Below the pieces are notes generated by a model. It saw nothing but the letters and a program-made list of their open reading frames with translations. It was not told the origin of the DNA and searched no databases. The position numbers were made by a program, and so were the translations under genes. Shown in pieces: positions 1-63,743 of a stretch of DNA of 64,000 bases. Numbering within the stretch: position 1 is the first letter of the stretch; each line of letters starts with the position of its first letter. The stretch spans positions 35,674 through 99,673 of the IMG/VR virus record IMGVR_UViG_3300020174_000004. The stretch is one strand, 5' to 3'. The DNA is from a virus.

Positions 1-558
1 AATGAAATAATTGAATTTAATGCTAACACTGATGTCGATAGTACTAATAATTTTATAACAATATCATCAAACCCATTTGTTAATAATGATTTAGTTTTAT
101 ATACTTCAAGAGAATTAGATTATACAAATACATCTCATTATGAAGTAACATTTAATGCTAACTCAGCTATTGATAATGCAAATGATTTTATAACTATATC
201 CTCTAATCAATTGGTAAATAATAATATAGTGTTTTATTCTACAAAATTAGATGGAACTGTGATATCTGGATTATCAAATGCTAATTATTATTATGTTGTT
301 TCGGCTAATTCTACAGGAATAAAACTATCTTCTACATATAATGGAAGTGTTATTAATATAACAAAAGGATTAACCGAAGAGCATATTATTATACAAAAAC
401 ATCCTAGTGCAATAGATAGTTTAACTGATGGCGATGAATATTATGTTGTTTCGGCTAATTCTACAGGAATAAAACTATCTGAAACAAGCAATGGTGATGT
501 AATAGATATAACATCAGGGTTTAACGAGATTCACACTCTTTCAAAGATAACGGTGTAA
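1..558 (+). CDS. C-terminal part of a baseplate/virion structural protein (probably gp7-like wedge); starts upstream of window
   Basis: Frame 1 is open from base 1 to TAA at 556-558; repeated YYVVSANSTGIKLS units; lies directly before the gp8-like gene. Confidence 0.6.
   Translation, partial: NEIIEFNANTDVDSTNNFITISSNPFVNNDLVLYTSRELDYTNTSHYEVTFNANSAIDNANDFITISSNQLVNNNIVFYSTKLDGTVISGLSNANYYYVVSANSTGIKLSSTYNGSVINITKGLTEEHIIIQKHPSAIDSLTDGDEYYVVSANSTGIKLSETSNGDVIDITSGFNEIHTLSKITV
289..480 (+). repeat. 42-bp identical direct repeat (289-330 and 439-480) inside the first ORF
   Basis: tattatgttgtttcggctaattctacaggaataaaactatct occurs twice. Confidence 0.9.
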
Positions 559-48099: not shown

Positions 48100-48498
48100 A
48101 TGGGATATAATTGGGTAAATGATATTGCAATAATGCATGAACATTATAATGTTCATCCTGTTATGGAAAAAATGGATAAAGAAAAGCTTAAAACTTTTCT
48201 TCAATTTAGGATTAATTTTCTCCAAGAAGAACTTGATGAGATGAAAACAGCAAAATCTGCTGAAGATGTTGTAGATGCTCTTATTGATTTATGTGTTGTA
48301 GCAATTGGAACACTTGATTGTTTTAAAGTAGATTCATATAAAGCATGGGATGAAGTTCTTAAGGCAAATATGAATAAAGAAGTTGGTGTTAAGCCAGAAC
48401 GTCCTAATCCTCTTGGTTTACCTGATCTTATTAAGCCACTGGGATGGGTAGCGCCTTCACATGAAAATAATCATGGAATTTTGACTAAGGTATTTTAA
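48100..48498 (+). CDS. All-alpha NTP pyrophosphatase (MazG/PRA-PH-like; candidate dCTPase/dUTPase)
   Basis: LQEELDE...DALIDL; ANMNK; DLIKP.GW..P. Confidence 0.75.
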   Translation: MGYNWVNDIAIMHEHYNVHPVMEKMDKEKLKTFLQFRINFLQEELDEMKTAKSAEDVVDALIDLCVVAIGTLDCFKVDSYKAWDEVLKANMNKEVGVKPERPNPLGLPDLIKPLGWVAPSHENNHGILTKVF

Positions 48499-48950: not shown

Positions 48951-49294
48951 TGAGTGAAAAAGAATCAGTAAAAGTTCTTCAAGAGTGTATTGATTTACAG
49001 CTTAAGAAATCAAATGATTATCAGAATCCTAATTCTGTTATTAGACAGGCTGATTATTACCCAAATGGTTGCTTGACAATTCTTGATACCATGCATGGCA
49101 AAATTCTTAGAATGCGATCGGTAATGGACGCAATGGTTAATGATCCAGATTATAAGCCAAACTTTGAATCACTAGAAGATTCTGCAAAAGATCTTGTAAA
49201 CTATGCTTCATTCTTTGTTTCTTACTCTCGTGGTAAGATTGATGGCCAAAATACAGATCGTGATTTCTTGAATAGAAAGATAAAGAATGTTTAA
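48950..49294 (+). CDS. Nucleotide-modification-associated domain protein (Nmad1-like)
   Basis: KKSNDY...K..R...ESLEDS..DLVNY pattern. Confidence 0.65.
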   Translation: MSEKESVKVLQECIDLQLKKSNDYQNPNSVIRQADYYPNGCLTILDTMHGKILRMRSVMDAMVNDPDYKPNFESLEDSAKDLVNYASFFVSYSRGKIDGQNTDRDFLNRKIKNV

Positions 49295-49943
49295 TAGAAA
49301 TACAGTTGCTGATATTCGAGAAGAATTCAAAAGACTTCTTGATGAGAAGCAGTTTGTTACAGATAAAAGTGGTGTTAAGATAGTTGAAATACCTAATGCT
49401 TCTTTTATTGCTAATGAATCATGTATTTTTGGTACAGTTAATTATGATTATGTTTTACGTGAATTAAGTTGGTATTATTCAGAATCATTGAATGTAAATG
49501 ATATTCCAGGCGGTCCTCCAGCAGTTTGGAAACTAGTTGCTGATAAAGATGGATATATTAATTCCAATTATGGTTGGTGTATTTTTTCTCCAGAAAATTT
49601 TAGTCAGTATGATAAAGTTTTAAATGAACTTAAAACTTCACCAGAATCTCGCCGAGCAATTATGATTTATACTCGTCCAACTATGTGGTATGATTATAAT
49701 GATAATGGTCGTTCAGATTTTATGTGTACAAATGCTGTTCAGTATATGATTAGAAATAATAAACTTCAAACAATTGTTCAAATGAGATCCAATGATGTTA
49801 TCTTTGGATATAAAAATGATTTTGCCTGGCAAAATCAAATACATGAAAAACTTGCAGACGATCTTAATATTGAATATGGCGATATTCATTGGAATGTTGG
49901 TTCTTTACATGTTTATGAAAAACACTTTCATTTGGTAAAATAA
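49287..49943 (+). CDS. gp42: dCMP hydroxymethylase (gp42-like, thymidylate synthase fold)
   Basis: RELSWY; NSNYG; RRAIMIYTRP; DFMCTN (catalytic Cys); MRSNDVIFGYKNDFAWQ with Asp at the dCMP-specificity position; SLHVY. Confidence 0.85.
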   Translation: MFNRNTVADIREEFKRLLDEKQFVTDKSGVKIVEIPNASFIANESCIFGTVNYDYVLRELSWYYSESLNVNDIPGGPPAVWKLVADKDGYINSNYGWCIFSPENFSQYDKVLNELKTSPESRRAIMIYTRPTMWYDYNDNGRSDFMCTNAVQYMIRNNKLQTIVQMRSNDVIFGYKNDFAWQNQIHEKLADDLNIEYGDIHWNVGSLHVYEKHFHLVK

Positions 49944-50407
49944 TGCGAATAGGTTCAAGACCCATACATAAATGGGATTATCGATATTTGGAAATGGCTC
50001 AATTGATTTCTACATGGTCAAAAGATCCAAGTACAAAAGTGGGTTCTATAGTTGTTGGATCAAAAGGTCAAATATTAACCCAAGGATATAATGGGTTACC
50101 AAGAGGAATTCAAGATTCAAATGAAAGATTAAATGATAGACCAACAAAACTAAAATATGTAGTTCATTCAGAAATGAATTGCATATACAATGCCAGCTAT
50201 AATGGAGTTTCATTGGAAAATTCTACTTTATATGTTTATGGTCTTCCTGTATGTTCCGAATGTGCTAAAGGCGTTATTCAAGTAGGAATAAAAAGAGTAA
50301 TTATGTGTTATCCATCTAGTATTGATGATAGATGGAGAAATTCTTTTGAAGATACGGCTAATATGTTTGATGAAGCTGGAGTGAAATTTAATAATTATGA
50401 AAAGTAA
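49943..50407 (+). CDS. cd: dCMP deaminase
   Basis: WSKDPSTKVG; GYNG; HSE; PVCSEC. Confidence 0.9.
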   Translation: MRIGSRPIHKWDYRYLEMAQLISTWSKDPSTKVGSIVVGSKGQILTQGYNGLPRGIQDSNERLNDRPTKLKYVVHSEMNCIYNASYNGVSLENSTLYVYGLPVCSECAKGVIQVGIKRVIMCYPSSIDDRWRNSFEDTANMFDEAGVKFNNYEK

Positions 50408-50410
50408 ATC

Positions 50411-50458
50411 ACTAAATACACTGAGAGCTACTCTGGGCCCCCAGTCAAATTTCTCTCA
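50411..50458 (+). promoter_or_regulatory. Late-type promoter variant (ACTAAATA) plus nested hairpin leader upstream of MIPS
   Basis: tgagag/ctctca outer stem and ctgg/ccag inner stem. Confidence 0.35.
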
Positions 50459-50490
50459 TTAAAAAACTGATATAAAAGAAAGGGTAAAAA

Positions 50491-51639
50491 ATGAATAATA
50501 TTCGTGTAGCCATTGTTGGCGTTGGTAACTGTGCAAAATCTCTAGTTGAAGGTGTTGCACTATATAGTGCAACTTCACGTGTTGATGGGCTTGCATTTGA
50601 AAATATTGGAGGCTATAAGGCTGAAAATATTGAATTTGTTTTGGCATATGACATTGATACTCGCAAAGTTGGTAGAAAGCTTGCTGATGCTATTTTTGCA
50701 AAGCCAAATTGCGCAATGGATTTTGAAGTATCACGTCAAAATATTGAAAAAGTTTGTTCAAATACCATAGTGAAGCGTGGTGCTTTGTATGATGGTGTTG
50801 CACCACACATGCTTAATATGCCAGAAGATGAATCTTTTAGAGTAACAAAAGATCCTGAACCATCCAAGGAAGAAATTATTAAAAATCTTCGTGATAATAA
50901 GGTTGATGTTCTTCTTAATTACTTACCAGTTGGATCAGAAACTGCTACTCGTTTTTACATTGAAGCATGCATTGAAGCAAAGGTTCCTTTTGTCAATTGT
51001 ATTCCAGTATTCATTGTTTCAGACCCATATTGGGAAAAAAGACTAATTGAAGCAGGAATTCCTGCAATTGGCGATGATATGAGAAGCCAGCTTGGTGCTA
51101 GTGTTATGTCACAGGCATTGCAGGAACTATTCTTTAATCGTGGTATGAAAGTAAAGTTCCATGAACAAACAAATCATGGTGGTAATACTGATTTTCTTAA
51201 TATGATGGATCAGAGTCGACTTGCTAGCAAAAAGATTTCTAAGGAAAATGTAATTAGATCACAAAATGATATTCGTGGAATCCCGGTTCCAAAGAATGGC
51301 ATTTATGCTGGACCATCAAGCTATATTCCTTATCATCAGGATAATAAGATTGCACATTTTAGAATTGAAGCTGAAGGATTTGGTGGCGCGCCAGTAATTT
51401 TTGATGCCCGTTTATCAGTACAAGATTCACCCAATTCTGCTGGTGTTGTTATTGATGCTATTAGATATCTTCAGGTTGCTAAAGAACTAGGACTTGTTGG
51501 TTCTCTACGTGGACCTTCAGCAGCTACACAAAAGACTCCACCAACACAGATGATGATTCAAGATGCATATGAAGAATGCAAGGCTTTAGCAGAAAGGCGG
51601 ATTACCGAAACTGTAAGGAATCATAATATCCATGATTAA
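50491..51639 (+). CDS. ino1: myo-Inositol-1(3)-phosphate synthase
   Basis: GVGNCAKSLVEG NAD-binding; YLPVGS; GDDMRSQLGA; GGNTDFLNM; SKKISK; DSPNSAG; KTPP. Confidence 0.92.
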   Translation: MNNIRVAIVGVGNCAKSLVEGVALYSATSRVDGLAFENIGGYKAENIEFVLAYDIDTRKVGRKLADAIFAKPNCAMDFEVSRQNIEKVCSNTIVKRGALYDGVAPHMLNMPEDESFRVTKDPEPSKEEIIKNLRDNKVDVLLNYLPVGSETATRFYIEACIEAKVPFVNCIPVFIVSDPYWEKRLIEAGIPAIGDDMRSQLGASVMSQALQELFFNRGMKVKFHEQTNHGGNTDFLNMMDQSRLASKKISKENVIRSQNDIRGIPVPKNGIYAGPSSYIPYHQDNKIAHFRIEAEGFGGAPVIFDARLSVQDSPNSAGVVIDAIRYLQVAKELGLVGSLRGPSAATQKTPPTQMMIQDAYEECKALAERRITETVRNHNIHD

Positions 51640-52012
51640 TACCTTTGATATAGATGGTGTAATCTATATGGGTGATAAATACACTGGGGTCTTTCCTGGC
51701 CCCAGTGATATAATCATTACCGGTCGTTCTTTTGAAGAAAGACACTACACCGAAAAAATGCTTATGGCTAGAAATATTTCAAACCATGTGTATTATAATA
51801 ATAAAAGATTTGAAGATAAAACTAGAGAAAGTTCGGGTTTACATAAAGCTAATACTATTAGGAGTCTTTTAAATAGTGGATATGAAATTGGTATTCACTT
51901 TGAAGATGATGAAATTCAAGCACAGGTTATTAGTAATTTAATACCAGAAATTAATGTAGTTATATTAAAGCACAATCTTGTTGATAAAGAGAATGTTTGG
52001 CATGGAAAATAA
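51632..52012 (+). CDS. Small capless HAD-superfamily phosphatase
   Basis: FDIDGV, ITGR, HK, FEDD motifs; overlaps the MIPS stop. Confidence 0.8.
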   Translation: MINTFDIDGVIYMGDKYTGVFPGPSDIIITGRSFEERHYTEKMLMARNISNHVYYNNKRFEDKTRESSGLHKANTIRSLLNSGYEIGIHFEDDEIQAQVISNLIPEINVVILKHNLVDKENVWHGK

Positions 52013-53069
52013 TTATAATTATAATTGGTATAATTTTGATAAAGAATTAATGAAAGACTTTAATTGGTTTTTACACAAAATTAATAAAAGAGCTTGTATT
52101 AATTATGGATTTATTAAAGAAAAATATGAAGCGGTAAATCGCTTTGGACAAGAAGATTGGGGATTAGGCGAGGATGTAGAATATTTCCATCCAACTATTA
52201 CTCTTGATGATCGAATGCGTTATATTTGTCAAGTTATAGTAAAACATCCTATGAGTGAATTTAATGTTCTTGGTAATACCATTATTTCACATTTTTATGG
52301 TGCTCGTGGTGTACATCAAACTATAACAGGATCTTTAGATCCAAATAATTGTTTTGTTGATTTTGATGAAGTGGCAAATGACAATCAAGATTATATTAAA
52401 TGGTTACGAAGCACTGTAGAAAAAGAAACAAAAATTAATAAAAAGCCAGTATGGGGAACTACTGAATTGCATACGCCAATTCAGGCTGCTGCTAGAAATT
52501 ATTGTAGAGAAAAATATGATAATAAAGATAGACCATTTCATACAATTGATGTTATTGAATGGGTTGCATCGTTCAAAGATAATGGAATAGCAAAAGCATT
52601 ACTACATGAAGTTGATCATCTTAAAGATGCATTTAAAGCCTTAACAAAACACAAAGGTATTGGCGAATATTATGGATTTCATTGTTCAACATCAACTAGT
52701 GTTATTCCACAAGCTAAATATCATCATGACCAAAGATTTGTAGCACCAGGACCAGGAGCCAGATATACAATTAATAAAATATGGCCAGAAGCACCAAAAT
52801 CTTTATATGCTGAAGCAGTTTATTTTTTACGTGAAAATGCTGATGAAATTGGATTAACTGAAAATGTTGAATTTCATCCAGATGCATGGAATATTGATAA
52901 TACCTTTACATTTCCACAAGATAGTTTAAAATATTATGGTACAGAAGTTCTTTCATGCCAGTTTGGTATATATCTACAAATACGTAATAATAAAAATGCG
53001 TGTAATAAAAGAAAAGTTTCTAGAATAGATTCTGATACAAATAATACACTTGAAGGATTTTTATCATGA
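52002..53069 (+). CDS. aGPT-Pplase1 / amino acid:DNA transferase-like helical protein
   Basis: HhH-like KGIGEYYGFH; D.RFVAPGPGAR; EVLSCQF..Y; clamp-type tail TLEGFLS. Confidence 0.65.
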   Translation: MENNYNYNWYNFDKELMKDFNWFLHKINKRACINYGFIKEKYEAVNRFGQEDWGLGEDVEYFHPTITLDDRMRYICQVIVKHPMSEFNVLGNTIISHFYGARGVHQTITGSLDPNNCFVDFDEVANDNQDYIKWLRSTVEKETKINKKPVWGTTELHTPIQAAARNYCREKYDNKDRPFHTIDVIEWVASFKDNGIAKALLHEVDHLKDAFKALTKHKGIGEYYGFHCSTSTSVIPQAKYHHDQRFVAPGPGARYTINKIWPEAPKSLYAEAVYFLRENADEIGLTENVEFHPDAWNIDNTFTFPQDSLKYYGTEVLSCQFGIYLQIRNNKNACNKRKVSRIDSDTNNTLEGFLS

Positions 53070-54166
53070 AATGTGTAATTGCAGCTCCATTTATTCCTAT
53101 ATCGTCCCAATTGGCAAGTCATAGAGCCGCGCAAGGAATAATTTATGCTGATATTCTAAAACAATATCATTGTGATAATATACATGTTTCTCTTTCAAGG
53201 CCTTCAATACAGGGTGATTCAGCTAAAGAAGAAAATAAAAAAGAGGATTTTAATAAGTATGATAGACTTTACATATATCATGGAAATGATAGAAAAGCGG
53301 ATTGTACTGATTTAAATTTTTTTGGTGGAACAAAAAACTTTCCTCACGCTTATAATATAAGAAATATATCTAAATTTAAAGGTGAAGTTTATTCTCTTCA
53401 TTATGATATGCCTGATTATGCTCAAATGTTAAAAAATAAACTTGATGGTCATCTTCTTCGTGAAGGAAATTTAGATAGTGTTGTAAAAGAATTTCTTGAA
53501 GTTGATATTGAAAATCTTAAAAAGATGCAAGAACGAGCAATTACATTAGAACCAATTGGTCCATGGGATAAACTTGTAATGGGTGATAGTCATGCAATAT
53601 GCATGTATCGTCCAGGATGGAATGTTAACTCCGTACCATTTAAAACTTTACATGGTGCCTTAAAACAAGGACTAAATTCATTTATAAACATGTCAAATGT
53701 AAAGCATGTTGAATATTATTTTGGTAATATTGATATTAGACATCATATATGTAGATTTGAAGATATTAAGTCTACAATTAATATTCTTGTAGAAAAATAT
53801 ATTAATCAGGTTAATGAACTTAATATGGAAACTAAAGCCATTTATGAACTTCTTCCAATAGAAAATGAAAGTAGAAGTATTCCTAAAAGTGGATGGTATG
53901 AAAAAACTCCATTCTATGGCTCTTGGTCACAAAGAAATGATGCAAGATTATATTTTAAAGAAAAACTTATAAATATGTCCCAAGGAACTGGTATAACTAT
54001 AAAAGAATGGATAACTCCAGAATTTTATAATTCAATTGGTGAAATGGATTTTAAAGTGATGGAAAAACCCAAGTCTGTTCATCTTTCTAGGGAATATTAC
54101 CCTTATTGGCAAGGTCTTGAATATAATAAAATTGAAAAAATAAGTTTGGAAAGCTTTTTCTCATGA
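53066..54166 (+). CDS. SGNH/GDSL-like hydrolase or acyltransferase-fold protein
   Basis: VMGDSHA; FGNIDIRHH; SVHLS; clamp-type tail SLESFFS. Confidence 0.55.
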   Translation: MKCVIAAPFIPISSQLASHRAAQGIIYADILKQYHCDNIHVSLSRPSIQGDSAKEENKKEDFNKYDRLYIYHGNDRKADCTDLNFFGGTKNFPHAYNIRNISKFKGEVYSLHYDMPDYAQMLKNKLDGHLLREGNLDSVVKEFLEVDIENLKKMQERAITLEPIGPWDKLVMGDSHAICMYRPGWNVNSVPFKTLHGALKQGLNSFINMSNVKHVEYYFGNIDIRHHICRFEDIKSTINILVEKYINQVNELNMETKAIYELLPIENESRSIPKSGWYEKTPFYGSWSQRNDARLYFKEKLINMSQGTGITIKEWITPEFYNSIGEMDFKVMEKPKSVHLSREYYPYWQGLEYNKIEKISLESFFS

Positions 54167-55380
54167 AACATTCTACTATTATACCACTTATTGGCGGTGA
54201 AATTATTGCATCAAGCGATGTTTTTGGTGACAAGCCAGAATATATTTTATCATATGATGTTTTTAAACATAATGAATCACATCTTTTAAATTATTGGAAT
54301 AATGAAATTCCATATTATGTATTAGATAAAGGTGATTCTGCGCCAAAAACAAAAATAGATGTGGTTTCAAGTGTTTGCCCTTGTGCAGGACTTAGTCAAT
54401 ATCATCATAAACCAGGTGAAGATAATCAAAATAATCAATGGATGGAAAAAACCGCAAATTATATTCTTGGTGAGGTTAAACCTAAGGTATTTTGGGGTGA
54501 AAATGCGCCAGCACTGGTTGGTAAGATTGGCGAATTCATGCTTAAAAAGCTTAGAAATATTGGTCTTCAAAATGGCTATAGTATGAGTGTATATCTTACT
54601 AAAAACATTAATCATGGTGTTCCACAATTTCGTAAAAGAACATTTTATTTTTTCTGGGATAAAAAGGAATTTGGTGAACGTTGCCCTCTTATCAATTATT
54701 TTGCCAGACCACATAAAAAAATTGAAAATGTAATAATTGATAATGAAAGCAATTTTCAAATGGAGCCAATTAATAATAAAATTCCGTCAAAAGATGATCC
54801 ATATTATCGTTATCTACTTGAAGAAGTTCATGGTGGTGTTACTCATCGTGAATTTTTTGATATATTAGAAACAAAAAATGTTAGAGGAAATGATGTAGAA
54901 TCATTAATTGAAATTGCTGGCCATGATTATAATATGGTTGGAAACTGGATGGAAAAAAATAATTATACTAGAGAAATTGAAAAGTGTAAAAGAAAATTTA
55001 TAAAATTAAAAAATAATGGTAATATAATGAGAAGAGGAACAATTGTTCCTAAAGATTATATTGGCGCCTTTGTTGGCCATTATCCAACTGTTTTAACTCA
55101 TCCATATGAAGATAGATATGTAACATATCGTGAAGCGATGAATATTATGGGGCTTCCACGTGATTTTGAACTTTTAAATCCACAAAAATCAATAAATCAT
55201 ATTTGTCAAAATGTACATTATGATACATCAAAAGATATGGCAATGGAAATAAAATCAGTTTTTGCTGGTGATCGTAAATTTGTTGAAACTGACTTTATGT
55301 TCCAATCCAATTTAAATAAGACTCATGAAGATTGGTCCAATCATGGTAAGGATACAACATTAGAATCATTTTTTGCATAG
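54163..55380 (+). CDS. DNA cytosine-C5 methyltransferase-fold protein with degenerate SAM-binding motifs
   Basis: CPCAGLS (IV), GENAP (VI), GVPQFRKR (VIII), TYREA..MGLP.DF (IX); motif I reads IPLIGG, motif X reads CQNV; tail TLESFFA. Confidence 0.85.
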   Translation: MKHSTIIPLIGGEIIASSDVFGDKPEYILSYDVFKHNESHLLNYWNNEIPYYVLDKGDSAPKTKIDVVSSVCPCAGLSQYHHKPGEDNQNNQWMEKTANYILGEVKPKVFWGENAPALVGKIGEFMLKKLRNIGLQNGYSMSVYLTKNINHGVPQFRKRTFYFFWDKKEFGERCPLINYFARPHKKIENVIIDNESNFQMEPINNKIPSKDDPYYRYLLEEVHGGVTHREFFDILETKNVRGNDVESLIEIAGHDYNMVGNWMEKNNYTREIEKCKRKFIKLKNNGNIMRRGTIVPKDYIGAFVGHYPTVLTHPYEDRYVTYREAMNIMGLPRDFELLNPQKSINHICQNVHYDTSKDMAMEIKSVFAGDRKFVETDFMFQSNLNKTHEDWSNHGKDTTLESFFA

Positions 55381-55460: not shown

Positions 55461-55817
55461 ATGAGTGAAGATATTAAAGTAAATGCACACTATTCTGATG
55501 TGCAATGGAACTATGGAAAAAATGATGTTCCATACAAATACTGCGAAGATAATATAATTTCCGATTTTAAGAATTATATTGATTCAACTTATTCAGAACA
55601 CTACAAGACAGAACAAGAAAGTATTGAATGCTTTGATGCATGGATTGCTCTTGGTGATTCTACTCCTACCTTTAGAAATACAGCTTTAAAATATCTTTGG
55701 CGATATGGCAAAAAGAATGGCTCAAATAAAGCCGATTTAATGAAAGCTCTTCATTACGTAATGATGTGCTTATATGTTGATCACTATAAGGAAAAAAATA
55801 ATGGAACTGACATTTAA
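55461..55817 (+). CDS. DUF3310/SaV-like nucleotide-metabolism-associated protein
   Basis: TYSEHY; IECFD; NTALKYLWRYGKK; DLMKALHY. Confidence 0.7.
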   Translation: MSEDIKVNAHYSDVQWNYGKNDVPYKYCEDNIISDFKNYIDSTYSEHYKTEQESIECFDAWIALGDSTPTFRNTALKYLWRYGKKNGSNKADLMKALHYVMMCLYVDHYKEKNNGTDI

Positions 55818-56646
55818 TCTAAATGAATTAAGAAAGAATAAACTTTTTATTGCTACACCAATGTATGGTGGTCAATGTGCTGGTATGTTTGCTAGATCTA
55901 TTGCTGATTTATCTGCTCTATGTGCAAGCAATGGAATTCAAATTCAATTTTATTTTCTATTCAATGAGTCTCTAATTACTCGGGCAAGAAATTATTGTTG
56001 TGATGAATTTATGCGTTCTGATGCAACACATATGATGTTTATTGATTCTGACATTGGTTTTAATCCCAGAGATGTTATTGCACTTATGGGCCTTCAAACA
56101 GAAGATAGTGAATATGATGTTATTGGTGGTCCATATCCAAAGAAATGCATTTCATGGGAAAAGATTAAGCAGGCTGTTGATAAAGGTATTGCTGATGAAA
56201 ATCCTCAACTTCTTGAAAAGTATGTTGGCGATTATGTCTTTAATCCAAAGAATAATCAAGGTCAGATCCCACTAGGTGAACCAGTTGAAGTTCTTGAAAT
56301 TGGTACTGGTTTTATGATGATTAGGAAGAAGACTCTTCAAAAGTTTATTGAAGCATATCCTCAGTATTCATATAAGCCTGATCATGTAAGGACAGAAGCT
56401 TTTGATGGTTCTAGAGAAATCATGATGTATTTCCAGGCCGAAACAGATCCTAAGTCTAAGAGATATTTATCAGAAGATTATTGGTTCTGTCAAAAGATCC
56501 AAGAAATTGGAATGAAAACTTGGTTCTGTCCATGGATGTCAATGCAACATGTTGGTACATATATCTTTGGTGGTTCTTTGGCTGATCTTGCACAAATCGG
56601 TGCAGCAGCAACCGCTGATGTTGGTAAGTTAAATAAAAAGAAGTGA
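55801..56646 (+). CDS. GT-A fold (GT2-like) glycosyltransferase, same family as 16517
   Basis: IATPMYGG; ESLITRARN; FIDSDI; YPKK; GTGFMMI; LSEDYWFC; HVG. Confidence 0.75.
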   Translation: MELTFNLNELRKNKLFIATPMYGGQCAGMFARSIADLSALCASNGIQIQFYFLFNESLITRARNYCCDEFMRSDATHMMFIDSDIGFNPRDVIALMGLQTEDSEYDVIGGPYPKKCISWEKIKQAVDKGIADENPQLLEKYVGDYVFNPKNNQGQIPLGEPVEVLEIGTGFMMIRKKTLQKFIEAYPQYSYKPDHVRTEAFDGSREIMMYFQAETDPKSKRYLSEDYWFCQKIQEIGMKTWFCPWMSMQHVGTYIFGGSLADLAQIGAAATADVGKLNKKK

Positions 56647-56660: not shown

Positions 56661-57326
56661 ATGCAAAAGTTGAAGCTATCTACACGTACAATTCAGATCT
56701 TAAAGAATTTTTCATCAATTAATCCTTCAGTTTATTTTAAACAAGGAAATAAGATTACTACTATTTCGCCTTCAAAGACTATTTTGGCCAAGGCTGAAGT
56801 AGTTGAAAATTTTGAAAGTGATTTTGCAATCTATAATCTATCAAGGTTTCTTGGTGTATTAACTCTTTTTAATGATCCAGAACTTGAAATTAATGAAAAG
56901 TATGTTACCATTATGGATAATAAGAAGAAGCTAAACTATATGTTTGCTGATCCTTCTAATATTATTACACCTCCTGAAAAAGAAATTGAGATGCCAAACC
57001 CAGAAATCTCTGTTTCATTGCCAAATGATGATCTTCAGACTATTATGAAGGCATTGTCAGTGCTTCAGTTGCCTGAAATTGCATTTGTAGGCCAGGAAGG
57101 TAAAACAACTATTCAGGCTGTTGACTCCAAAGGTTTGGTTGGTGATAATTGTTCAGTTGAACTTGGAAATTCTGAAATTGATTTCAAGATGATCTTTAAG
57201 GCTGAAAATATTAAGATTATTCCTGATGATTATGAAGTTCAGATTTCATCAAAGAAAATTTCAAAGTTTACTGGTTCTGATATAAATTACTACATTGCTG
57301 TAGAATCTAACTCCTCTATGAATTGA
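56661..57326 (+). CDS. gp45: Sliding clamp gp45
   Basis: ILKNFSSIN; FAIYNLSRFL; ENIKIIP.DY.V; YYIAVE. Confidence 0.92.
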   Translation: MQKLKLSTRTIQILKNFSSINPSVYFKQGNKITTISPSKTILAKAEVVENFESDFAIYNLSRFLGVLTLFNDPELEINEKYVTIMDNKKKLNYMFADPSNIITPPEKEIEMPNPEISVSLPNDDLQTIMKALSVLQLPEIAFVGQEGKTTIQAVDSKGLVGDNCSVELGNSEIDFKMIFKAENIKIIPDDYEVQISSKKISKFTGSDINYYIAVESNSSMN

Positions 57327-58279: not shown

Positions 58280-58656
58280 CATATAAACCATTTGATTATG
58301 TAAATTCTATTAATAACACCAAGAAAAATTTAATAGAAGATGAAACAAGCGAGAAGGGGTATAACCCCTTCTTGACTAATCGTGCTTTGTCATATCATGT
58401 TGATTCATTGCTATATGCAAATGATATGAATATGTTATCAATTCTTGATAATAAGTTGCAATATGACTATTATCTTCATGGGTTAAAAAAGAGTAAGAGA
58501 TATTCCAAGTGGCATAAATTTGAACCATCTGAGAAATATGAAATTATTAAAGAATATTATAAATATAATGATAAGAAAACAAAAGAAGTAATGAATCTTC
58601 TTAATGATTCACAAATAATGATTCTTAAGAATAAAATGTTTAAAGGTGACCAATGA
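58276..58656 (+). CDS. gp62: Clamp loader subunit gp62
   Basis: PFDYVNSIN; YNPFLTNRALS; QYDYY; RYSKW. Confidence 0.9.
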   Translation: MTYKPFDYVNSINNTKKNLIEDETSEKGYNPFLTNRALSYHVDSLLYANDMNMLSILDNKLQYDYYLHGLKKSKRYSKWHKFEPSEKYEIIKEYYKYNDKKTKEVMNLLNDSQIMILKNKMFKGDQ

Positions 58657-59822
58657 TTGAACTCCATAAAGATTCCATAGAAGTTATAGATAATCTTTTA
58701 CCAGACGATCTTCACGAAGAGATAATGGATGACGTGAGATCATTTAGGTTTACTTATGGTTGGCTTCAAAGTAGTGCTGATTATCATGGTCATTTTAATG
58801 TAGAATTAATCCATGCAGCGCCATCAAATGTTGCTGATGTTGAAGATGAATTAAAAAAGACGGAATTAAATTATACCTCTCTTTATAAGATGTGGAAGTA
58901 TATACAATCAGAATATGTTGGTCTAGATAAAAAACTTATTAGATGTTATTTTAATGGTCATGTTTTTGGCATAGATGGATATAGTCATAGAGATTCACCT
59001 CGTGATGATGAATGGTCTATGGTTATCTATACTAATTTTGAAGATGAATGGAATCCAGATTGGGGTGGTGAAACTTCTGTATTTGAAGATGGTGAAATTA
59101 TTAAATCAGTTTTACCGAAGAAAAATAGAGCAATTATATTTGCTGGTAATAAACTTCACGCGCCAAGACCGCTTGGTAGATTTTACACAGGCATGCGTCA
59201 GATTATTGTCTTTAAGTTTAGGTCACCAAGAACAGAAAGTTTTGAAAAAGTATCAACTCTAGTAAAGGAACTTGGCGGAATGCGAGTTCCTTCCAGATCA
59301 TTTGGTAATATGCATGATCATATGTTATCATGTTATACTGAATTGAGTAAAAGAGTTGTTGATGAAGAGGTATGTGAAGCGGCTGGTCTTCATGCTCTTT
59401 ATGGATCTAGAACTGCAAAAACCGCATTTTTAGATCCAAAGAAAAATTCCGACGTTATTAAATCATTATTTTCTAATAGAGTTGAAGAGCTTGTATATCT
59501 ATGTTCAATTATTGCTAGACCAGAAGGATTAATGGATCCCGTTGATATATCTGATGAGGGTGTAACTGTTAAACTTTTTAATGGTGATGATATTAGAATA
59601 CCAAGACAGCATTATGATGATTTAATGCTTATAGAAGCGGCCAATCAAGCATCACTTTCTATAGTTTTAGATAGAGATAAATATGATAAGTTCTCTTCAA
59701 TTTATCCAGTATTAGAGGATGAGAGTAAAAAGTTAAGTGATACCCTTTCTCATAGGGAGCATTTTAAGAATCATAATAAGTACAGGGAATATAATATAAG
59801 AAAGAAGAAAAAGAATGAGTAG
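58653..59822 (+). CDS. 2OG-Fe(II) oxygenase fused to a C-terminal HD-like (DUF6817-like) domain
   Basis: HRD...WGGET...H...R; then DHM..Y..L...VCEAAGLHALYG. Confidence 0.75.
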   Translation: MIELHKDSIEVIDNLLPDDLHEEIMDDVRSFRFTYGWLQSSADYHGHFNVELIHAAPSNVADVEDELKKTELNYTSLYKMWKYIQSEYVGLDKKLIRCYFNGHVFGIDGYSHRDSPRDDEWSMVIYTNFEDEWNPDWGGETSVFEDGEIIKSVLPKKNRAIIFAGNKLHAPRPLGRFYTGMRQIIVFKFRSPRTESFEKVSTLVKELGGMRVPSRSFGNMHDHMLSCYTELSKRVVDEEVCEAAGLHALYGSRTAKTAFLDPKKNSDVIKSLFSNRVEELVYLCSIIARPEGLMDPVDISDEGVTVKLFNGDDIRIPRQHYDDLMLIEAANQASLSIVLDRDKYDKFSSIYPVLEDESKKLSDTLSHREHFKNHNKYREYNIRKKKKNE

Positions 59823-60219
59823 TTTATTAGATTCACTAGTCGAGGTGAGGATAGGTGAAGAGGGTGATTTTCTTAAGATTAAGGAAACCCTTACCCGTAT
59901 CGGTATTGCTTCAAGGAAAGAGAGAAAACTTTTTCAATCATGTCATATCCTTCATAAGCAGGGTAGGTATTATATAGTTCACTTTAAAGAACTTTTTGCT
60001 TTGGATGGGAAGTCTTCTAATTTGTCTAATGAGGATGTATCAAGGAGAAATACGATTGCAAATCTTCTTCAGGACTGGGGTTTACTTAAGGTAGTAGATC
60101 CTGCTTCAAAAGATTCTCTCGCTCCATTGTCGGGCATCAAGATTTTATCTCATAAAGAGAAGAATGAGTGGGAACTTGTGGCCAAATATAATATTGGAAA
60201 GAAGAAGAAAGATCCTTAG
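59815..60219 (+). CDS. regA: Translational repressor RegA
   Basis: DFLKIKETLTRIG; QSCHILHKQGRYYIVHFKELF; WGL; KY.IG. Confidence 0.95.
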   Translation: MSSLLDSLVEVRIGEEGDFLKIKETLTRIGIASRKERKLFQSCHILHKQGRYYIVHFKELFALDGKSSNLSNEDVSRRNTIANLLQDWGLLKVVDPASKDSLAPLSGIKILSHKEKNEWELVAKYNIGKKKKDP

Positions 60220-60426
60220 GTGGAAACTAAAGAAGAACTTCTAGACGAATTTGTGTCGTCCTTATCTAAAATCATTGAGATTAAGGATGATATTCAGCAT
60301 GAACTGAGATATCACAATTCTAATACAGCGTCATCCATTAGAGAAAATCGGTACATTCCTGAGATAGAAAAACTTAAAGGTGCTCTGAGAAGAATTCTAT
60401 CTCTATCCACTACAAACAACGAATAA
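60220..60426 (+). CDS. Small hypothetical protein
   Basis: GTG start directly after the regA stop. Confidence 0.55.
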   Translation: METKEELLDEFVSSLSKIIEIKDDIQHELRYHNSNTASSIRENRYIPEIEKLKGALRRILSLSTTNNE

Positions 60427-60823
60427 TATCTCTTTCTCCAGTAGTATAGAATGCTTTCCTGATATTAAAGGTAGCAATAGCACGTGTACATCCTTCACAT
60501 GGCTTCGCCAATCCGAATGAACCATCTTGCTTTACTCTACATACAAACAGTGTACATTTCGATAACTGATCTGTATTCAATACTCTCAAAGCATTCTTAA
60601 TAGCATCAGTCTCTGCATGGAGATATATTGCCTCTTCATTCTTAGAATACTTTGCCTGAAAAGGGTGTGACTTAAACTTATTAGTACCAATAGATACAAA
60701 TTCATTCTTATACAACAAACAAGCGGCCAATCTTGCATTAGCCACTCTCTCAACATCATATGCTATATTAGAAAGTACATTAAGTACTCTCTGTATCTTC
60801 TTTGTACTATACGACGAATTCAT
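60410..60823 (-). CDS. Zinc-dependent cytidine/adenosine deaminase-fold protein
   Basis: HAE...KPCEGC; likely start MNSSYS at 60823. Confidence 0.8.
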   Translation of the reverse strand: MNSSYSTKKIQRVLNVLSNIAYDVERVANARLAACLLYKNEFVSIGTNKFKSHPFQAKYSKNEEAIYLHAETDAIKNALRVLNTDQLSKCTLFVCRVKQDGSFGLAKPCEGCTRAIATFNIRKAFYTTGERDIIRCL

Positions 60824-60890
60824 TACATTCACGGGTATCGAGGTGAATTTTCCGGAAAAAAAAATTTGAAGCCCTCGGTTCAGAAAAAAC

Positions 60891-61066
60891 ACTCAGTCTC
60901 TATTAATAACAGGGTAATCAGAGCTGCGCGATTGAATTATACAGAAGCAATTATAGGGTGGGGGCTGAGTATGGATGGGAACCCATTCGGCACTTCACCA
61001 GCTTCTCTATTACGAAGGGTGAAGGGTAGGATCACTCGCAACTTGCGTTGACGATAATCCTACCCT
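60891..61066 (+). other. Non-coding cluster of four hairpins
   Basis: actcagtctc/ggggctgagt; ggatgg/ccattc; cttcacc/ggtgaag; agggtaggat/atcctaccct. Confidence 0.45.
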
Positions 61067-61075
61067 GTGATAAGA

Positions 61076-61330
61076 TTAGACCATCTTCGAAGCAACAGCA
61101 CCAAGTGCAGCATAACCAGCAGCAACTACAGCCTTGCTTGGCTTACCGAGACGATAGAAGCTCTTCCGAGTCTTCCGCTCGTTGTGATAGATGGCATTGC
61201 CCTTCGAACGTAGGTTGGTAATAGCAGCAGTCGGGTTCTTGATGCCGAATCGAGCAGCGATCTGTGCTCGTGTTAGCTTCTCACCAGACTCAAGCGCTGC
61301 GAGTAGACGTGCTTCCTTAGTAGTATTCAT
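61076..61330 (-). CDS. Winged-helix DNA-binding protein
   Basis: LTRAQIAARFGIKNPTAAITNLR..G..I; YRLG.P; GGAGA RBS. Confidence 0.8.
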   Translation of the reverse strand: MNTTKEARLLAALESGEKLTRAQIAARFGIKNPTAAITNLRSKGNAIYHNERKTRKSFYRLGKPSKAVVAAGYAALGAVASKMV

Positions 61331-61363
61331 TCAAATATCTCCATTGTTAAGGTTGGCCAAAGG

Positions 61364-61528
61364 TTACAGCATATCGATGAGTCGGCCATTCTCATCTACT
61401 GTTCGTACCCTATGAGAAGGATAGGATGCTTGTGCATTCCGCATCTCATTAAGGTAAAACTGAGGGTCGTTGACGATGTACGAAAACGTTTGCCATACAC
61501 CGTTGACTTGAACTTGGATCTCAACCAT
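61364..61528 (-). CDS. Small early hypothetical protein
   Basis: GGAGAG RBS before MVEIQVQ; overlaps upstream stop. Confidence 0.65.
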   Translation of the reverse strand: MVEIQVQVNGVWQTFSYIVNDPQFYLNEMRNAQASYPSHRVRTVDENGRLIDML

Positions 61529-61721
61529 CGATGCTCTCCATGAGAAATCCATAAGTCCGTTTGCAGTAGTCCATGGCCAGGTTGATGGCTCCTGGAAGGT
61601 TGACCTGCTCCATTGTAGAGAAGTAGTCTACTTCTTGATCTCCATGCCAGACCTGGAAGGCCGTGTCCTGGTTCCACTTGACTCGAAAGCCCAAGTCGTC
61701 GTCTTCGTATACGGTAATCAT
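61521..61721 (-). CDS. Small early hypothetical protein
   Basis: GGAG RBS before MITVYE; directly below a promoter cassette. Confidence 0.65.
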   Translation of the reverse strand: MITVYEDDDLGFRVKWNQDTAFQVWHGDQEVDYFSTMEQVNLPGAINLAMDYCKRTYGFLMESIDG

Positions 61722-61740
61722 ATCAATACTCCATATATAG

Positions 61741-61769
61741 ATCTTATACCGATTCCGAATTAATGTCAA
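61741..61769 (-). promoter_or_regulatory. Early promoter cassette P1
   Basis: TTGACAttaatt...(17 nt)TAAGAT. Confidence 0.8.
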
Positions 61770-61776
61770 CCGGTCC

Positions 61777-61836
61777 GGGGGTCAGAAAATGCACTTTTGC
61801 AACTTTTTTCTGACCCCCTCCCCTTTGGCCAGGGGA
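61777..61836. repeat. 13-bp inverted repeat plus a second hairpin just upstream of P1 (stem-loop/terminator)
   Basis: gggggtcagaaaa (61777-61789) / ttttctgaccccc (61806-61818); tcccct/agggga. Confidence 0.7.
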
Positions 61837-61853
61837 TTACGAGGAGAGAGAGA

Positions 61854-62108
61854 TCACCCCGAGGCCAATTTGTGTAGACTCTGCCATTTCGAACCAATAG
61901 TACCCAAGCCTGAACCAGACAGCATAGACTGCCACATGATCCGCTGAACCTCGACTGCAGTCGGAGCATTGGATATATCGCGAAGCAAGTTCTGCTTCTT
62001 AGTGGCTTTAGTATTAGACTCGTGGATAAGTCGTGTTGCCCGATCCTTGGCTACTTCGAGATCCATTCCCTCAAAGTGCAGATCTTCCGGTTTGAACAGC
62101 TCAGCCAT
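61854..62108 (-). CDS. Early hypothetical protein (MAELFKPED...)
   Basis: GGAG RBS inside the upstream small ORF; 84 aa. Confidence 0.65.
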   Translation of the reverse strand: MAELFKPEDLHFEGMDLEVAKDRATRLIHESNTKATKKQNLLRDISNAPTAVEVQRIMWQSMLSGSGLGTIGSKWQSLHKLASG

Positions 62109-62208
62109 TACGATTCTCCATATAGTGGTGGACGCCAAAGCACACGGCCATAAACATAACGAACACAAGAACCGGCCCAAACAGGACCATACAGTCGAAA
62201 GTTGACAT
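62101..62208 (-). CDS. 35-aa single-TM early peptide (MSTFDCMVLFGPVLVFVMFMAVCFGVHHYMENRNG), missed by the ORF track
   Basis: GGAGA RBS; directly below promoter P2; hydrophobic core; overlaps the next start. Confidence 0.6.
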   Translation of the reverse strand: MSTFDCMVLFGPVLVFVMFMAVCFGVHHYMENRNG

Positions 62209-62233
62209 TAACTCATCTCCAATTTATAGTACT

Positions 62234-62262
62234 ATTCTATCATCGATTCTAATTAATGTCAA
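62234..62262 (-). promoter_or_regulatory. Early promoter cassette P2
   Basis: TTGACAttaatt...(17 nt)TAGAAT. Confidence 0.8.
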
Positions 62263-62270
62263 CCTCCTTT

Positions 62271-62933
62271 TTAGTACTGGAGGAACTTTGGCACAACCCT
62301 GATCAGGCCCTGATTGTTCAGGATGGCAGCAACCTCAGCCTTTGCCTCTTCGGCATTGAAATCTTCAACACCAGTGTGGCCTGCAGCTTCCTCATCGGCA
62401 ACTTGGCCTTTCATATACTCTTTCTTAAGCTTCTTATGCCGAGCTGTAATCTCCTGCATCTTAGCCAGATTAGCTGCCCGGATGCGCTCGATCTCTTCCG
62501 GAGACTTGGTTACCTTAACCTCAGGCACCTTGATGGCACCGGACTTGATGGCCTTGGCAATAAGCTTGTTGGACTCGGCGTGGATGTTCTTAGCTTTAGG
62601 TGTCTTGGCTGCACCTTTGACAGATTCGATGGCCTCATCCACTTGCATAGCCAGACCAATAATATCGTCAAGGCACGTAAACTTAAGATTAGCATACCCA
62701 GAGGCTTCCTTGACTACGCTGAAGCCATTGGCCTTGACCAGATCCATTGCAGTAGGGAATGCAACCTTGGGCATACCGTATCCAATAACAAATACTCCAG
62801 ACGAAGTCTTGACTTCTATCTTAGCATTATGCTTGGTCCGGATCAGGAAGTTGGTATTGCCCTGCTTGACTGGCTCGAAGCCATTTGCTTTTGCGAACTC
62901 AGAGAATACTTCGAAAGTGATAGCGGTAGTCAT
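62271..62933 (-). CDS. Early hypothetical protein (K/A-rich C-terminal half)
   Basis: GAGGAGA RBS before MTTAITF; below P3. Confidence 0.75.
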   Translation of the reverse strand: MTTAITFEVFSEFAKANGFEPVKQGNTNFLIRTKHNAKIEVKTSSGVFVIGYGMPKVAFPTAMDLVKANGFSVVKEASGYANLKFTCLDDIIGLAMQVDEAIESVKGAAKTPKAKNIHAESNKLIAKAIKSGAIKVPEVKVTKSPEEIERIRAANLAKMQEITARHKKLKKEYMKGQVADEEAAGHTGVEDFNAEEAKAEVAAILNNQGLIRVVPKFLQY

Positions 62934-62960
62934 TTGTCTCTCCTCATTGACCATATATAG

Positions 62961-62989
62961 ATCTTATAATAAGATCTAATTAATGTCAA
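62961..62989 (-). promoter_or_regulatory. Early promoter cassette P3
   Basis: TTGACAttaatt...(17 nt)TAAGAT. Confidence 0.8.
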
Positions 62990-63357
62990 TCCCTGTTCGA
63001 AACTTTTTTGTACAAAGTTCGGTCCCCTACGTATACGTCGAATCGAGTGCCATGCTCAGGCTTAATATCGAGCACGCTTGACCGATAGTGTACACCGCCA
63101 CGACGATACAGCTTAGCATTAGGGTTATTCTTGCCAAGCCGAGGACGAATTCTCATGAACACCCGCTTCCGCCGAGTCTCAGCATAACCATTATGATACA
63201 CTATGGTCTTAGGTGGATTGTCCACTTCATTGAGCCTGCGAACCAAATTCTCCTTCTTCATCCATGTCTTCCACTCCTGGATGAGTGGATCATTCAGATC
63301 CGTGACTGTAAACTTATAATCAGACCCACCTTTATACCCAAGACGTACATAAGCCAT
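62986..63357 (-). CDS. Early basic hypothetical protein
   Basis: GAGGAGA RBS before MAYVRLG; RLGKNNPNA..Y...RFDVYV. Confidence 0.7.
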   Translation of the reverse strand: MAYVRLGYKGGSDYKFTVTDLNDPLIQEWKTWMKKENLVRRLNEVDNPPKTIVYHNGYAETRRKRVFMRIRPRLGKNNPNAKLYRRGGVHYRSSVLDIKPEHGTRFDVYVGDRTLYKKVSNRD

Positions 63358-63385
63358 ATTGTCTCTCCTCATTGACTATAGTTAG

Positions 63386-63414
63386 ATCTTATCATGGATA
63401 TGAATTAATGTCAA
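63386..63414 (-). promoter_or_regulatory. Early promoter cassette P4
   Basis: TTGACAttaatt...(17 nt)TAAGAT. Confidence 0.8.
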
Positions 63415-63419
63415 CCCCC

Positions 63420-63641: not shown

Positions 63642-63669
63642 ATTGTCTCTCCTCATTGACTATAGTTAG

Positions 63670-63698
63670 ATTCTATCATCAAATCGAATAATTGTAAA
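63670..63698 (-). promoter_or_regulatory. Early promoter cassette P5
   Basis: TTTACA-17 nt-TAGAAT; 32-bp leader identical to that of P4. Confidence 0.75.
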
Positions 63699-63743
63699 CT
63701 AAAAAAGTGAACTTGAGCACAAAATTTTTTTCACTCAAGTCTG

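Follow-up and report, generated by a model that had tools for sequence, protein, structure and literature searches.

The window analysed here is a 64,000-nucleotide stretch of viral DNA forming the right-hand 64 kb of a 99.7-kb IMG/VR record (IMGVR_UViG_3300020174_000004, positions 35,674 to 99,673 of that record). The completeness of the record is estimated at 59%, and the GC content of the window is about 30%. The window encodes gp47/gp46-like nuclease subunits, the gp45 sliding clamp, the gp44/gp62 clamp loader and RegA, a replication-gene set that marks its source as an uncultured T4-like water phage. Upstream of gp45, a block of genes starting with a nucleotide pyrophosphatase and containing a T4 gp42-type dCMP hydroxymethylase leads to an open reading frame (ORF) related to C5-cytosine DNA methyltransferases, hereafter called MT-like. 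C5-cytosine methyltransferases are among the best understood DNA enzymes. In the MT-like protein, the residues that activate the cytosine are kept, the chamber that would hold S-adenosylmethionine (SAM, or AdoMet) is rebuilt, and the gene stands next to genes for making and decorating 5-hydroxymethylcytosine (hmC).

The first 4 nucleotides of the MT-like ORF are shared with the end of the preceding gene, at its stop codon. Its product matched the Pfam family DNA_methylase (PF00145) with an E-value of 3.3e-18 and 66.7 bits, as compared to a cut-off of 22. This match spans only positions 57-300 of the 324 of the profile, and motifs I to III lie outside it. With the NCBIfam model dcm (TIGR00675), the score was 40.6 bits, under the cut-off of 100.65. 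The structure predicted with AlphaFold2 from an alignment of 33 homologues had a pLDDT of 90.1 and a pTM of 0.88, and the best Foldseek matches of this model were ternary complexes of M.HhaI (E 2e-13). Superposition with VIA-align gave Z 25.6 and a root mean square deviation of 3.1 Å over 279 residues with M.HaeIII. With M.HhaI, Z was 25.5 and the deviation 3.1 Å, residues 1..370 of the model lying on HhaI 12..325. The predicted structure is that of a class I C5-cytosine methyltransferase, with a large catalytic domain and a small target recognition domain (TRD). It has the fold of M.HhaI, M.HaeIII and E. coli Dcm over about 280-300 residues, and the same order of motifs.

The MT-like protein shares with these enzymes the Cys of motif IV (PC), the Glu of motif VI (EN), the QxRxR of motif VIII and motif IX, with a variable TRD between motifs VIII and IX in both. 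A first-pass annotation of the window had described motifs IV, VI and VIII as intact and had read motif I as IPLIGG and motif X as CQNV. These readings stand: the three intact motifs are CPCAGLS, ENAP and QFRKR, and the two variants are read directly from the sequence. In the M.HhaI type, motif I is FxGxGG. The structural range and an hhalign comparison with the Dcm profile agree in equating I7 with F18, P8 with A19, L9 with G20 and G11-G12 with G22-G23 (HhaI numbering). The hhalign alignments of motifs II and X were unreliable, and this comparison was used for motif I only. For motif X, HMMER aligned ICQNVP on the IGNAVP of M.HaeIII, which places Gln349 at HhaI N304; the form is (C/A/T/S)QNVP in the family for GN(A/S)VP in the M.HhaI type. 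Two further departures from the canon replace HhaI Q82 by A75 (PCQ to PCA) and V121 by A115 (ENV to ENA). In M.HhaI, Q82 and N304 line the space occupied by the transferable group, the Q82A mutation reduces methylation about 16-fold and N304A favours larger groups (PMC3526304). The departure from the SAM-binding consensus proposed in the first-pass annotation is found, and it falls on positions that line the pocket of the transferable group.

More than 2,400 homologues of the MT-like protein were retrieved at E <= 1e-3 from a set of 5.8 billion proteins, and 770 clusters at E <= 0.001 from a library of representatives at 50% identity. The close family members are viral. Our literature search found no paper describing this family. 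Conservation was counted on an alignment of 129 full-length representatives sharing at most 50% identity with one another, and reaching down to 29% identity. The catalytic residues are kept throughout (C74 in 128/129, E113, R157 and R159 each in 129/129), together with N114 (127/129) and Q155 (126/129). The residues replacing the canonical ones are kept nearly as well. In motif I, P8 is found in 126/129, L9 in 125/129, G11 in 127/129 and G12 in 124/129; the Phe position is occupied by Ile or Val, and only the GG pair of FxGxGG is retained. In motif X, Q349, N350 and V351 are present in 125/129, 123/129 and 124/129, respectively. At the Q349 position, Lys occurs in 3/129 only, and Arg is not among the five commonest residues listed. 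Other residues on the side of the pocket behave similarly (S30 116/129, F34 120/129, N37 121/129, A75 105/129 and A115 123/129). The Glu of motif II does not appear to be conserved: residue 32, its equivalent by predicted secondary structure in a region where the profile alignment is unreliable, can be S, D, P, K or T, and is followed by invariant F34, N37 and D/E38.

Because the replacement residues are near-invariant across the 129 representatives, the cofactor pocket is rebuilt rather than decayed. The description of the SAM motifs as "eroded" in the first-pass annotation is wrong. The pattern is the signature of selection for something other than the canonical AdoMet contacts, as judged from the alignment. 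The TRD, with a mean top-residue frequency of 0.31, varies within the family to the same degree as the TRDs of ordinary sequence-specific methylases; an unusually conserved TRD, which would have indicated a non-specific or fixed target, was thereby ruled out.

Table 1. Genes of the hydroxymethylcytosine block and motifs of the MT-like ORF (positions in the window)
Feature	Position	Strand	Basis
MazG/PRA-PH-like NTP pyrophosphatase (candidate dCTPase), first conserved gene of the hmC block	48100..48498	+	PF01503, neighbourhood
T4 gp42-type dCMP hydroxymethylase	49287..49943	+	PDB 1b49 match, diagnostic residues
dCMP deaminase	49943..50407	+	domain/family matches
myo-inositol-1-phosphate synthase (MIPS)-like gene, variable cassette	50491..51639	+	domain/family matches
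Small HAD/PNK-phosphatase-like gene, variable cassette	51632..52012	+	family match
HMUDK_hel-domain protein, variable cassette, tail TLEGFLS	51978..53069	+	PF18723, tail scan
phrog_13881 protein, Rossmann-like N half and SGNH/GDSL-like C half, tail SLESFFS	53066..54166	+	family match, predicted structure
C5-cytosine methyltransferase-fold (MT-like) ORF, 405 aa	54163..55380	+	PF00145, AlphaFold2/Foldseek
Motif I variant IPLIGG (I7 P8 L9 I10 G11 G12), at HhaI F18 A19 G20 L21 G22 G23	54181..54198	+	structural range, hhalign
Motif IV CPCAGLS, catalytic Cys74; Ala75 at HhaI Q82	54376..54396	+	sequence alignment
Motif VI ENAP (Glu113); Ala115 for Val of canonical ENV	54499..54510	+	sequence alignment
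Motif VIII QFRKR (Gln155, Arg157, Arg159)	54625..54639	+	sequence alignment
Motif IX REAMNIMGLPRDF	55129..55167	+	sequence alignment
Motif X variant CQNV; Gln349 at HhaI Asn304	55204..55215	+	HMMER alignment
C-terminal tail TLESFFA, putative gp45 clamp-binding peptide	55357..55377	+	tail comparison with gp43
DUF3310 protein (PHROG families annotated nucleotide kinase), conserved 3′ of the MT-like gene	55461..55817	+	family match
phrog_1574 protein, conserved just upstream of gp45	55774..56646	+	family match
gp45 sliding clamp, presumed docking partner of the tail	56661..57326	+	homology

The genes upstream of the MT-like ORF include an hmC-type nucleotide pathway. The thymidylate synthase (TS) homologue of the block matches T4 dCMP hydroxymethylase (PDB 1b49) with an E-value of 2e-79. 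Its active-site stretch, MRSNDVIFGYKNDFAWQ, has Asp at the position of ThyA N177 and keeps Asp at the position of ThyA D169, and its SDFMC sequence puts an acidic residue at ThyA L143. Asp at ThyA-N177 denotes dCMP specificity, 5-hydroxy-dCMP synthases have Asn at ThyA-D169, and an acidic residue at L143 is a further criterion for a dCMP hydroxymethylase (PMC13326640). The gp42 homologue is flanked by the MazG/PRA-PH-like pyrophosphatase and by dCMP deaminase; in the MetaGPA study, the same trio, including PF01503, was associated with contigs containing modified cytosine (PMC8670742). Since the TS homologue is a T4 gp42 orthologue with dCMP-specific, hydroxymethyl-type residues, the genome of the record very probably carries hmC, in agreement with the first-pass annotation. 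A 5-hydroxy-dCMP product, as in RB69, was ruled out because the diagnostic D169N change is absent. The HMUDK_hel protein of the block matches the helical domain of 5-hydroxymethyl-dU DNA kinases (PF18723, E 7e-11) and has no other Pfam domain. A genome with thymidine hypermodification through 5-hydroxymethyluracil, which this match could have indicated, was ruled out since the TS homologue is dCMP-specific; the HMUDK_hel protein stands here in a cytosine (hmC) and not in a thymidine context.

By gp44, the closest cultured phages are Stenotrophomonas phage DLP6 (61%), Methylophilales phage Melnitz (58%) and Pelagibacter myophages (55-56%), and the MT-like gene was found in none of these. In DLP6, nothing of the block, from pyrophosphatase to MT-like, is found between the deformylase and the clamp genes. 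Therefore, the block behaves as an island. The context in close relatives was studied in 80 IMG/VR loci found using the MT-like enzyme. Their common gene order is pyrophosphatase, two small genes, gp42, dCMP deaminase, a variable slot, MT-like, (DUF3310), phrog_1574, gp45, gp44, gp62 and RegA. The TS homologue is found in 61 of the 80 loci and in 27 of the 28 loci of at least 15 kb, and in each of the 60 copies that could be read, both diagnostic positions are Asp.

The variable slot between the dCMP deaminase and the MT-like gene (loci L004-L083) corresponds to the stretch 50411-54166 of the window, where it contains the MIPS/HAD/HMUDK_hel/phrog_13881 set. In the relatives, it is most commonly filled by an alpha-glucosyltransferase (AGT) homologue (PF11440, E 4e-73). 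Alternatives are UDP-galactopyranose mutase (GLF) with an epimerase and an unknown gene, a transferase resembling glycosyltransferase (GT) family 4 (GT4-like), a cytidylyltransferase with an unknown gene and AGT, or three unknown genes with phrog_13881. The presence of the MT-like gene is independent of which cassette fills the slot. In two relatives, L052 and L070, MIPS is 75% identical to that of the window and the adjoining MT-like protein only 52-55% identical, showing that the MIPS cassette moves independently of the MT-like gene.

In each lineage sampled, though not at each locus, the MT-like gene adjoins genes for hmC decoration, which are AGT, sugar-nucleotide genes or the MIPS cassette. 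A divergent branch of the family (29-37% identity) was represented by 72 loci, on contigs that resemble fragments of much larger genomes (CheckV completeness 6-45%). There, the MT-like gene adjoins AGT-like genes or the MIPS cassette in 25/72 loci, mainly those with a TS-like gene nearby. About 35 of the 72 loci have no recognised neighbour for the query set used; in L097, the single one of these that was examined, the MT-like gene lies inside a GT2/HAD/nucleotidyltransferase/GT-like/epimerase/GT1 operon. All 28 TS homologues near the MT-like gene in this branch are of the Asp/Asp type, and four of the eight contigs of at least 60 kb have an Asp/Asp-type TS homologue elsewhere on the contig.

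Among cultured phages, relatives of the MT-like gene occur in S-TIM5-like cyanophages, Pseudoalteromonas phage XG4 and Bacillus phage G. Our literature search found no paper on DNA modification in these phages. In cyanophage S-TIM61 (OP053361.1), a gene annotated as ThyA (L001:4766-5602, - strand) lies 2.4 kb from the S-TIM5-type MT-like gene. In its product, Asp stands at ThyA N177 (RSNDMATGVPLDM) and Cys at L143; the enzyme is probably specific for dCMP and not a true thymidylate synthase. In phage XG4, a gp42-like gene is located 5 kb upstream of the MT-like relative. Phage G (JN638751.1; L084, L088) has a distant relative, gp301, with FIFGG, CPCSGLS, ENAP and AQGVP as motifs. This gene is 3 kb from gp306, annotated 'alpha glucosyl transferase', and near a sugar-1-phosphate thymidylyltransferase. 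Besides a normal ThyA, phage G encodes another TS homologue, in which position 177 is Asp and position 143 acidic. Together, these genes suggest that the DNA of phage G contains glucosyl-hmC.

Reverse sampling of the clade by gp42 gave 32 loci spanning gp42 to phrog_1574/gp45. The MT-like gene is present in 25 of them and missing in seven. A universal core gene of the hmC block was thereby ruled out. Three of these loci (L181, L187, L188) have nothing in the slot: DUF3310 comes directly after the deaminase, and both a decoration cassette and the MT-like gene are missing. The other four (L169, L176, L213, L242) carry a phrog_13881 cassette without the MT-like gene. Because the MT-like gene is missing where the slot is empty, it belongs to the decoration layer. 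Comparison of the loci shows it to be gained and lost with this layer and not with the genes for hydroxymethyl-dCTP synthesis.

The MT-like protein ends with TLESFFA, a tail that also terminates DNA polymerases of related phages. In T4 and RB69, the C-terminus of the polymerase is the peptide that docks on the clamp. gp43 was not found in the 99.7-kb record; seven gp43 polymerase homologues in the loci of relatives end with TLEDFFA, TLDEFFG, TIEDFFG or TLESFFA. We scanned the 222 ORFs of at least 60 aa of the whole record with the pattern [STNG][LIM][EDL]xF[FL]. Only three carried it, and these are the consecutive genes of the HMUDK_hel, phrog_13881 and MT-like proteins, with TLEGFLS at 53049-53066, SLESFFS at 54146-54163 and TLESFFA at 55357-55377 (C-terminus TTLESFFA). 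The three proteins are unrelated to one another and all are DNA-modification candidates. In the relatives, the tail is found on MT-like, HMUDK_hel and phrog_13881 proteins, on GT4-like and GT-like transferases and on some AGTs, and it is missing on MIPS, HAD, GLF, epimerase and cytidylyltransferase. The tail separates the putative DNA-acting proteins from the small-molecule enzymes. In the divergent branch, tails are of another type (...K.LF), again common to consecutive genes. There is a precedent for such an association, since T4 alpha-glucosyltransferase co-purifies with gp45 (PMC13216743). Overall, the TLESFFA tail suggests that the MT-like enzyme is tethered to the gp45 clamp, and would therefore act on newly replicated phage DNA.

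Some members of the family occur as tandem pairs (L089 10001-12437, L090 10001-12417 and L127 9953-12401). Both copies read IVPLIGG, CPCAGLS, ENAP and xQNVP, and the TRDs differ between the paralogues. Both also end in a ...LF tail, which in L089 is present on the next ORF too. Long forms of 485-1,462 aa (P0166, P0169, P0190, P0197 and P0236) were found on metagenome contigs of 1.5-5 kb. They retain IIPLIGGS, SVCPCAGLS and ENAP; P0236 apparently ends before motif X, and the four with a readable motif X have (A/C)QNVP. The forms of 598-1,462 aa thus retain the complete signature. To these motifs are added K/E/S-rich low-complexity regions and, as judged by eye, apparent Cys/His zinc-finger-like motifs. 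P0190 carries a zf-CXXC domain recognised by Pfam (E 7e-7). The long forms look like eukaryotic nuclear proteins on contigs resembling eukaryotic transcripts.

The closest parallels differ from the MT-like protein in distinct ways. As compared to the M.HhaI type, besides its motifs and its low score with TIGR00675, the MT-like protein has a clamp-type tail and belongs to genomes that pre-make a 5-substituted dCMP. SpCmoX, the DNA cytosine C5-carboxymethyltransferase of Synechococcus phage S-B43 (PDB 8YF3; Z 23.9), is also a phage protein of C5-methyltransferase fold with a changed residue at N304, which transfers no plain methyl group and whose product is a handle for hypermodification (PMC12783734). 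At HhaI N304, CmoX has an Arg, which binds the carboxylate group of carboxy-S-adenosylmethionine (Cx-SAM) and redirects the enzyme to this cofactor (PMC12783734); the MT-like protein has Gln349 there. SpCmoX, however, keeps the ribose-binding Glu and the Phe contacting the adenine, and acts on unmodified C in GC sites (PMC12783734). It is accompanied by CmoA, and its sequence similarity to the MT-like protein is confined to motifs VI to VIII. No match to CmoA, the Cx-SAM synthase (TIGR00740), was found in the 99.7-kb record, itself 59% complete.

Engineered enzymes, M.HhaI Q82A/Y254S/N304A and eM.SssI, are changed at the same two positions, and the replacement of Q82 by Ala is natural in the MT-like protein. 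C5-methyltransferases can couple thiols to hmC in vitro with exchange of the hydroxyl (PMC7176277), and the engineered ones do so through the Cys-C6 adduct (PMC3526304, PMC7176277). These are, however, laboratory variants or side reactions of true methylases; in the MT-like protein N304 is replaced by the longer Gln and not by Ala, and motif I is changed too. T4 alpha-glucosyltransferase and the other decorators of hmC acting at the fork are likewise post-replicative enzymes of hmC-DNA, and AGT homologues occupy the adjoining slot in many relatives. These enzymes have, in contrast, an unrelated GT-B fold and act on the hydroxyl oxygen with UDP-glucose, without a covalent enzyme-base intermediate.

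The best explanation of these data is that the MT-like ORF codes for a functional DNA enzyme belonging to the decoration layer of an hmC system, which acts after replication. We tentatively favour an enzyme that is tethered to the clamp and attacks C6 of cytosine or hydroxymethylcytosine in new phage DNA, where it would catalyse a reaction different from ordinary methylation. Since the catalytic residues are kept, the enzyme would be expected to attack a cytosine-type base covalently at C6. The substrate would be fresh phage DNA bearing 5-CH2OH because of the tail and of the neighbouring genes. The reaction is most probably not ordinary SAM-dependent methylation of cytosine, since C5 would already hold CH2OH and since the SAM chamber is rebuilt. 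By analogy with methyltransferase chemistry on hmC, it most likely takes place on the 5-hydroxymethyl substituent through the Cys-C6 adduct. Under these constraints, this would be the chemically simplest reaction, since C5-methyltransferases carry it out in vitro when no cofactor is present (PMC7176277). Klimasauskas and colleagues reportedly observed cofactor-free reactions of C5-methyltransferases on hmC in vitro.

A possible course of events is the following. The TLESFFA tail would dock on gp45 as the tail of the polymerase does, so that the enzyme travels on fresh phage DNA, where it would flip a cytosine-type base out of the helix. Cys74 would then attack C6, with Glu113 on N3 and Arg157/Arg159 on O2. 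The resulting Cys-C6 adduct of hmC could lose its hydroxyl to give an exocyclic methylene, captured by another nucleophile; alternatively, a related retro-aldol reaction, a transfer step or the release of formaldehyde could follow. The outcome would be a further type of mark, in addition to the sugars or polyols provided by the neighbouring cassette. A more specific proposal, which we regard as possible although doubtful, is a natural 'hydroxymethylcytosine transferase' that has given up SAM, converts the 5-CH2OH of hmC into a reactive methylene and attaches another group at the replication fork. Such an enzyme would perform thymidylate-synthase-type chemistry on duplex DNA. On this doubtful proposal, the zinc-finger/CXXC branches of the family would suggest that cellular organisms have captured the activity too.

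Several observations weigh against the favoured reading. T4 makes and glucosylates hmC without such an enzyme, the absence of the MT-like gene from seven of the gp42-sampled loci indicates that it is dispensable, and no universal gene for a nucleophile or a cofactor accompanies it. Asp55, the likely motif III residue, is kept in 92/129 representatives and, together with G11-G12, is compatible with SAM binding; class I methyltransferases are known to tolerate variation. For motifs II and X, the residue correspondences were drawn from alignment of sequences and secondary structures; for motif X, hhalign gives an alternative, gapped alignment. Finally, the CXXC finger of DNMT1, TET and MLL binds unmodified CpG; by analogy, the presence of such a finger on one long form hints at plain cytosine as a possible target.

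In the main rival explanation, which we consider unlikely, the enzyme would transfer an alkyl group from AdoMet or an analogue to ordinary cytosine, the variants of motifs I and X only tuning the choice of cofactor. Unreplaced cytosines, C-DNA of early infection, host DNA or specific contexts could be its substrates. Such an enzyme would account for the retention of all cytosine-activating residues, of G11-G12 and of Asp55. It would however be expected to find C5 occupied, because all sampled lineages with the gene also have a dCMP-specific TS homologue. It would also have to bind its cofactor with an invariant Leu for the first Gly of FxGxG, Ile or Val for the stacking Phe and a motif II Glu that is apparently not conserved, in a protein scoring below the NCBIfam dcm cut-off. 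A single change in motif X does retarget the cofactor in CmoX (PMC12783734), but the 99.7-kb record, 59% complete, shows no CmoA-like synthase. The TRD variability (0.31), the differing TRDs of the tandem paralogues and the zf-CXXC domain of one long form are as would be expected from a sequence-specific methylase of plain cytosine. Against this, hmC phages whose slot is empty lack the gene, although cytosines that escape should trouble them just as much. Explanations outside the set considered here are left a small chance.

The first-pass annotation had proposed SAM-independent coupling of a polyol or another nucleophile onto hmC. In this phage, myo-inositol, provided by the adjacent MIPS and phosphatase, or another polyol would be coupled via the Cys-C6 adduct. 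Indeed, the MIPS, HAD-like phosphatase and MT-like genes form one co-oriented run, and a MIPS cassette lies directly upstream of a family member in distant phages as well (L124, L128, L131, L135, L152, L158, L159). Inositol has no anomeric carbon, so that an ether link would presumably need such an activation and not a glycosyltransferase. However, close relatives pair the same enzyme with AGT alone or with GLF/epimerase or GT4-like genes, and the MIPS cassette moves on its own, as seen in L052 and L070. Moreover, the cassette has its own clamp-tailed candidates, the HMUDK_hel and SGNH-like proteins, which could do the coupling. The link to inositol is not supported, and we regard this coupling as improbable.

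We further considered a non-catalytic accessory role, in which a clamp-borne protein flips bases or binds hmC, and thereby presents or shields bases or blocks host enzymes, the catalytic residues being kept for tight or covalent binding. DNMT3L is an example of an inactive, regulatory C5-methyltransferase paralogue, and the MT-like gene lies beside DNA-decoration enzymes having the same tail and is dispensable in some relatives. Cys74, Glu113, Arg157 and Arg159 kept in 128-129 of the 129 representatives, together with a conserved rebuilt pocket, are nevertheless the pattern of an enzyme, and T4 AGT and the T4 beta-glucosyltransferase BGT are reported to flip bases unaided (titles cited in PMC13216743). 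Such a role appears very improbable. A decaying, non-functional methylase remnant, which the loss of canonical motifs I and X could have suggested, is effectively refuted by the conservation data, with an intact frame, more than 2,400 homologues, 770 clusters at 50% identity, near-invariant replacements and a confidently predicted fold.

The MT-like proteins thus form a large, uncharacterised family with three common traits: they retain the machinery that activates cytosine, their cofactor chamber is rebuilt in a single conserved manner, and their genes are placed with those that make and decorate hmC. To our knowledge, SAM-free side reactions of C5-methyltransferases with hmC have been described only in vitro and for engineered enzymes, and we know of no natural enzyme with hmC hydroxyl-exchange activity. 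Should hmC be its substrate, the MT-like enzyme would be the first one in nature to use that chemistry. It would then produce new phage DNA modifications relevant to the evasion of restriction, DNA glycosylases and CRISPR, and would offer a ready-made tool for labelling hmC. A true hydroxymethylcytosine transferase would moreover imply a class of cytosine hypermodifications that mass spectrometry has not yet revealed. If the enzyme is instead a SAM-dependent methylase, one would have to ask where hmC phages contain unmodified cytosine.

Concerning the neighbouring cassette, the phrog_13881 protein is predicted to have a Rossmann-like N-terminal half and a C-terminal half resembling SGNH/GDSL esterases, with an invariant GDSH at 173-176 (model pLDDT 77). 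The top Foldseek match of this model, a weak one, was T4 beta-glucosyltransferase. For the HMUDK_hel protein, PHROG 17781 corresponds to a fused form in which the phrog_13881-like part comes first. phrog_13881 was found in several different cassettes, with or without the MT-like gene.

Further downstream, a 389-aa protein with a 2-oxoglutarate-Fe(II) oxygenase (2OG-Fe(II) oxygenase) domain and DUF6817 is encoded at 58653-59822, inserted between gp62 and RegA; among the 80 loci of relatives, it was matched in L019 only. gp43 is not downstream of RegA in this record, unlike in relatives. Right after RegA, the sign of the GC skew flips, and the GC content rises from about 0.30 to 0.43 in the region 60001-64000.

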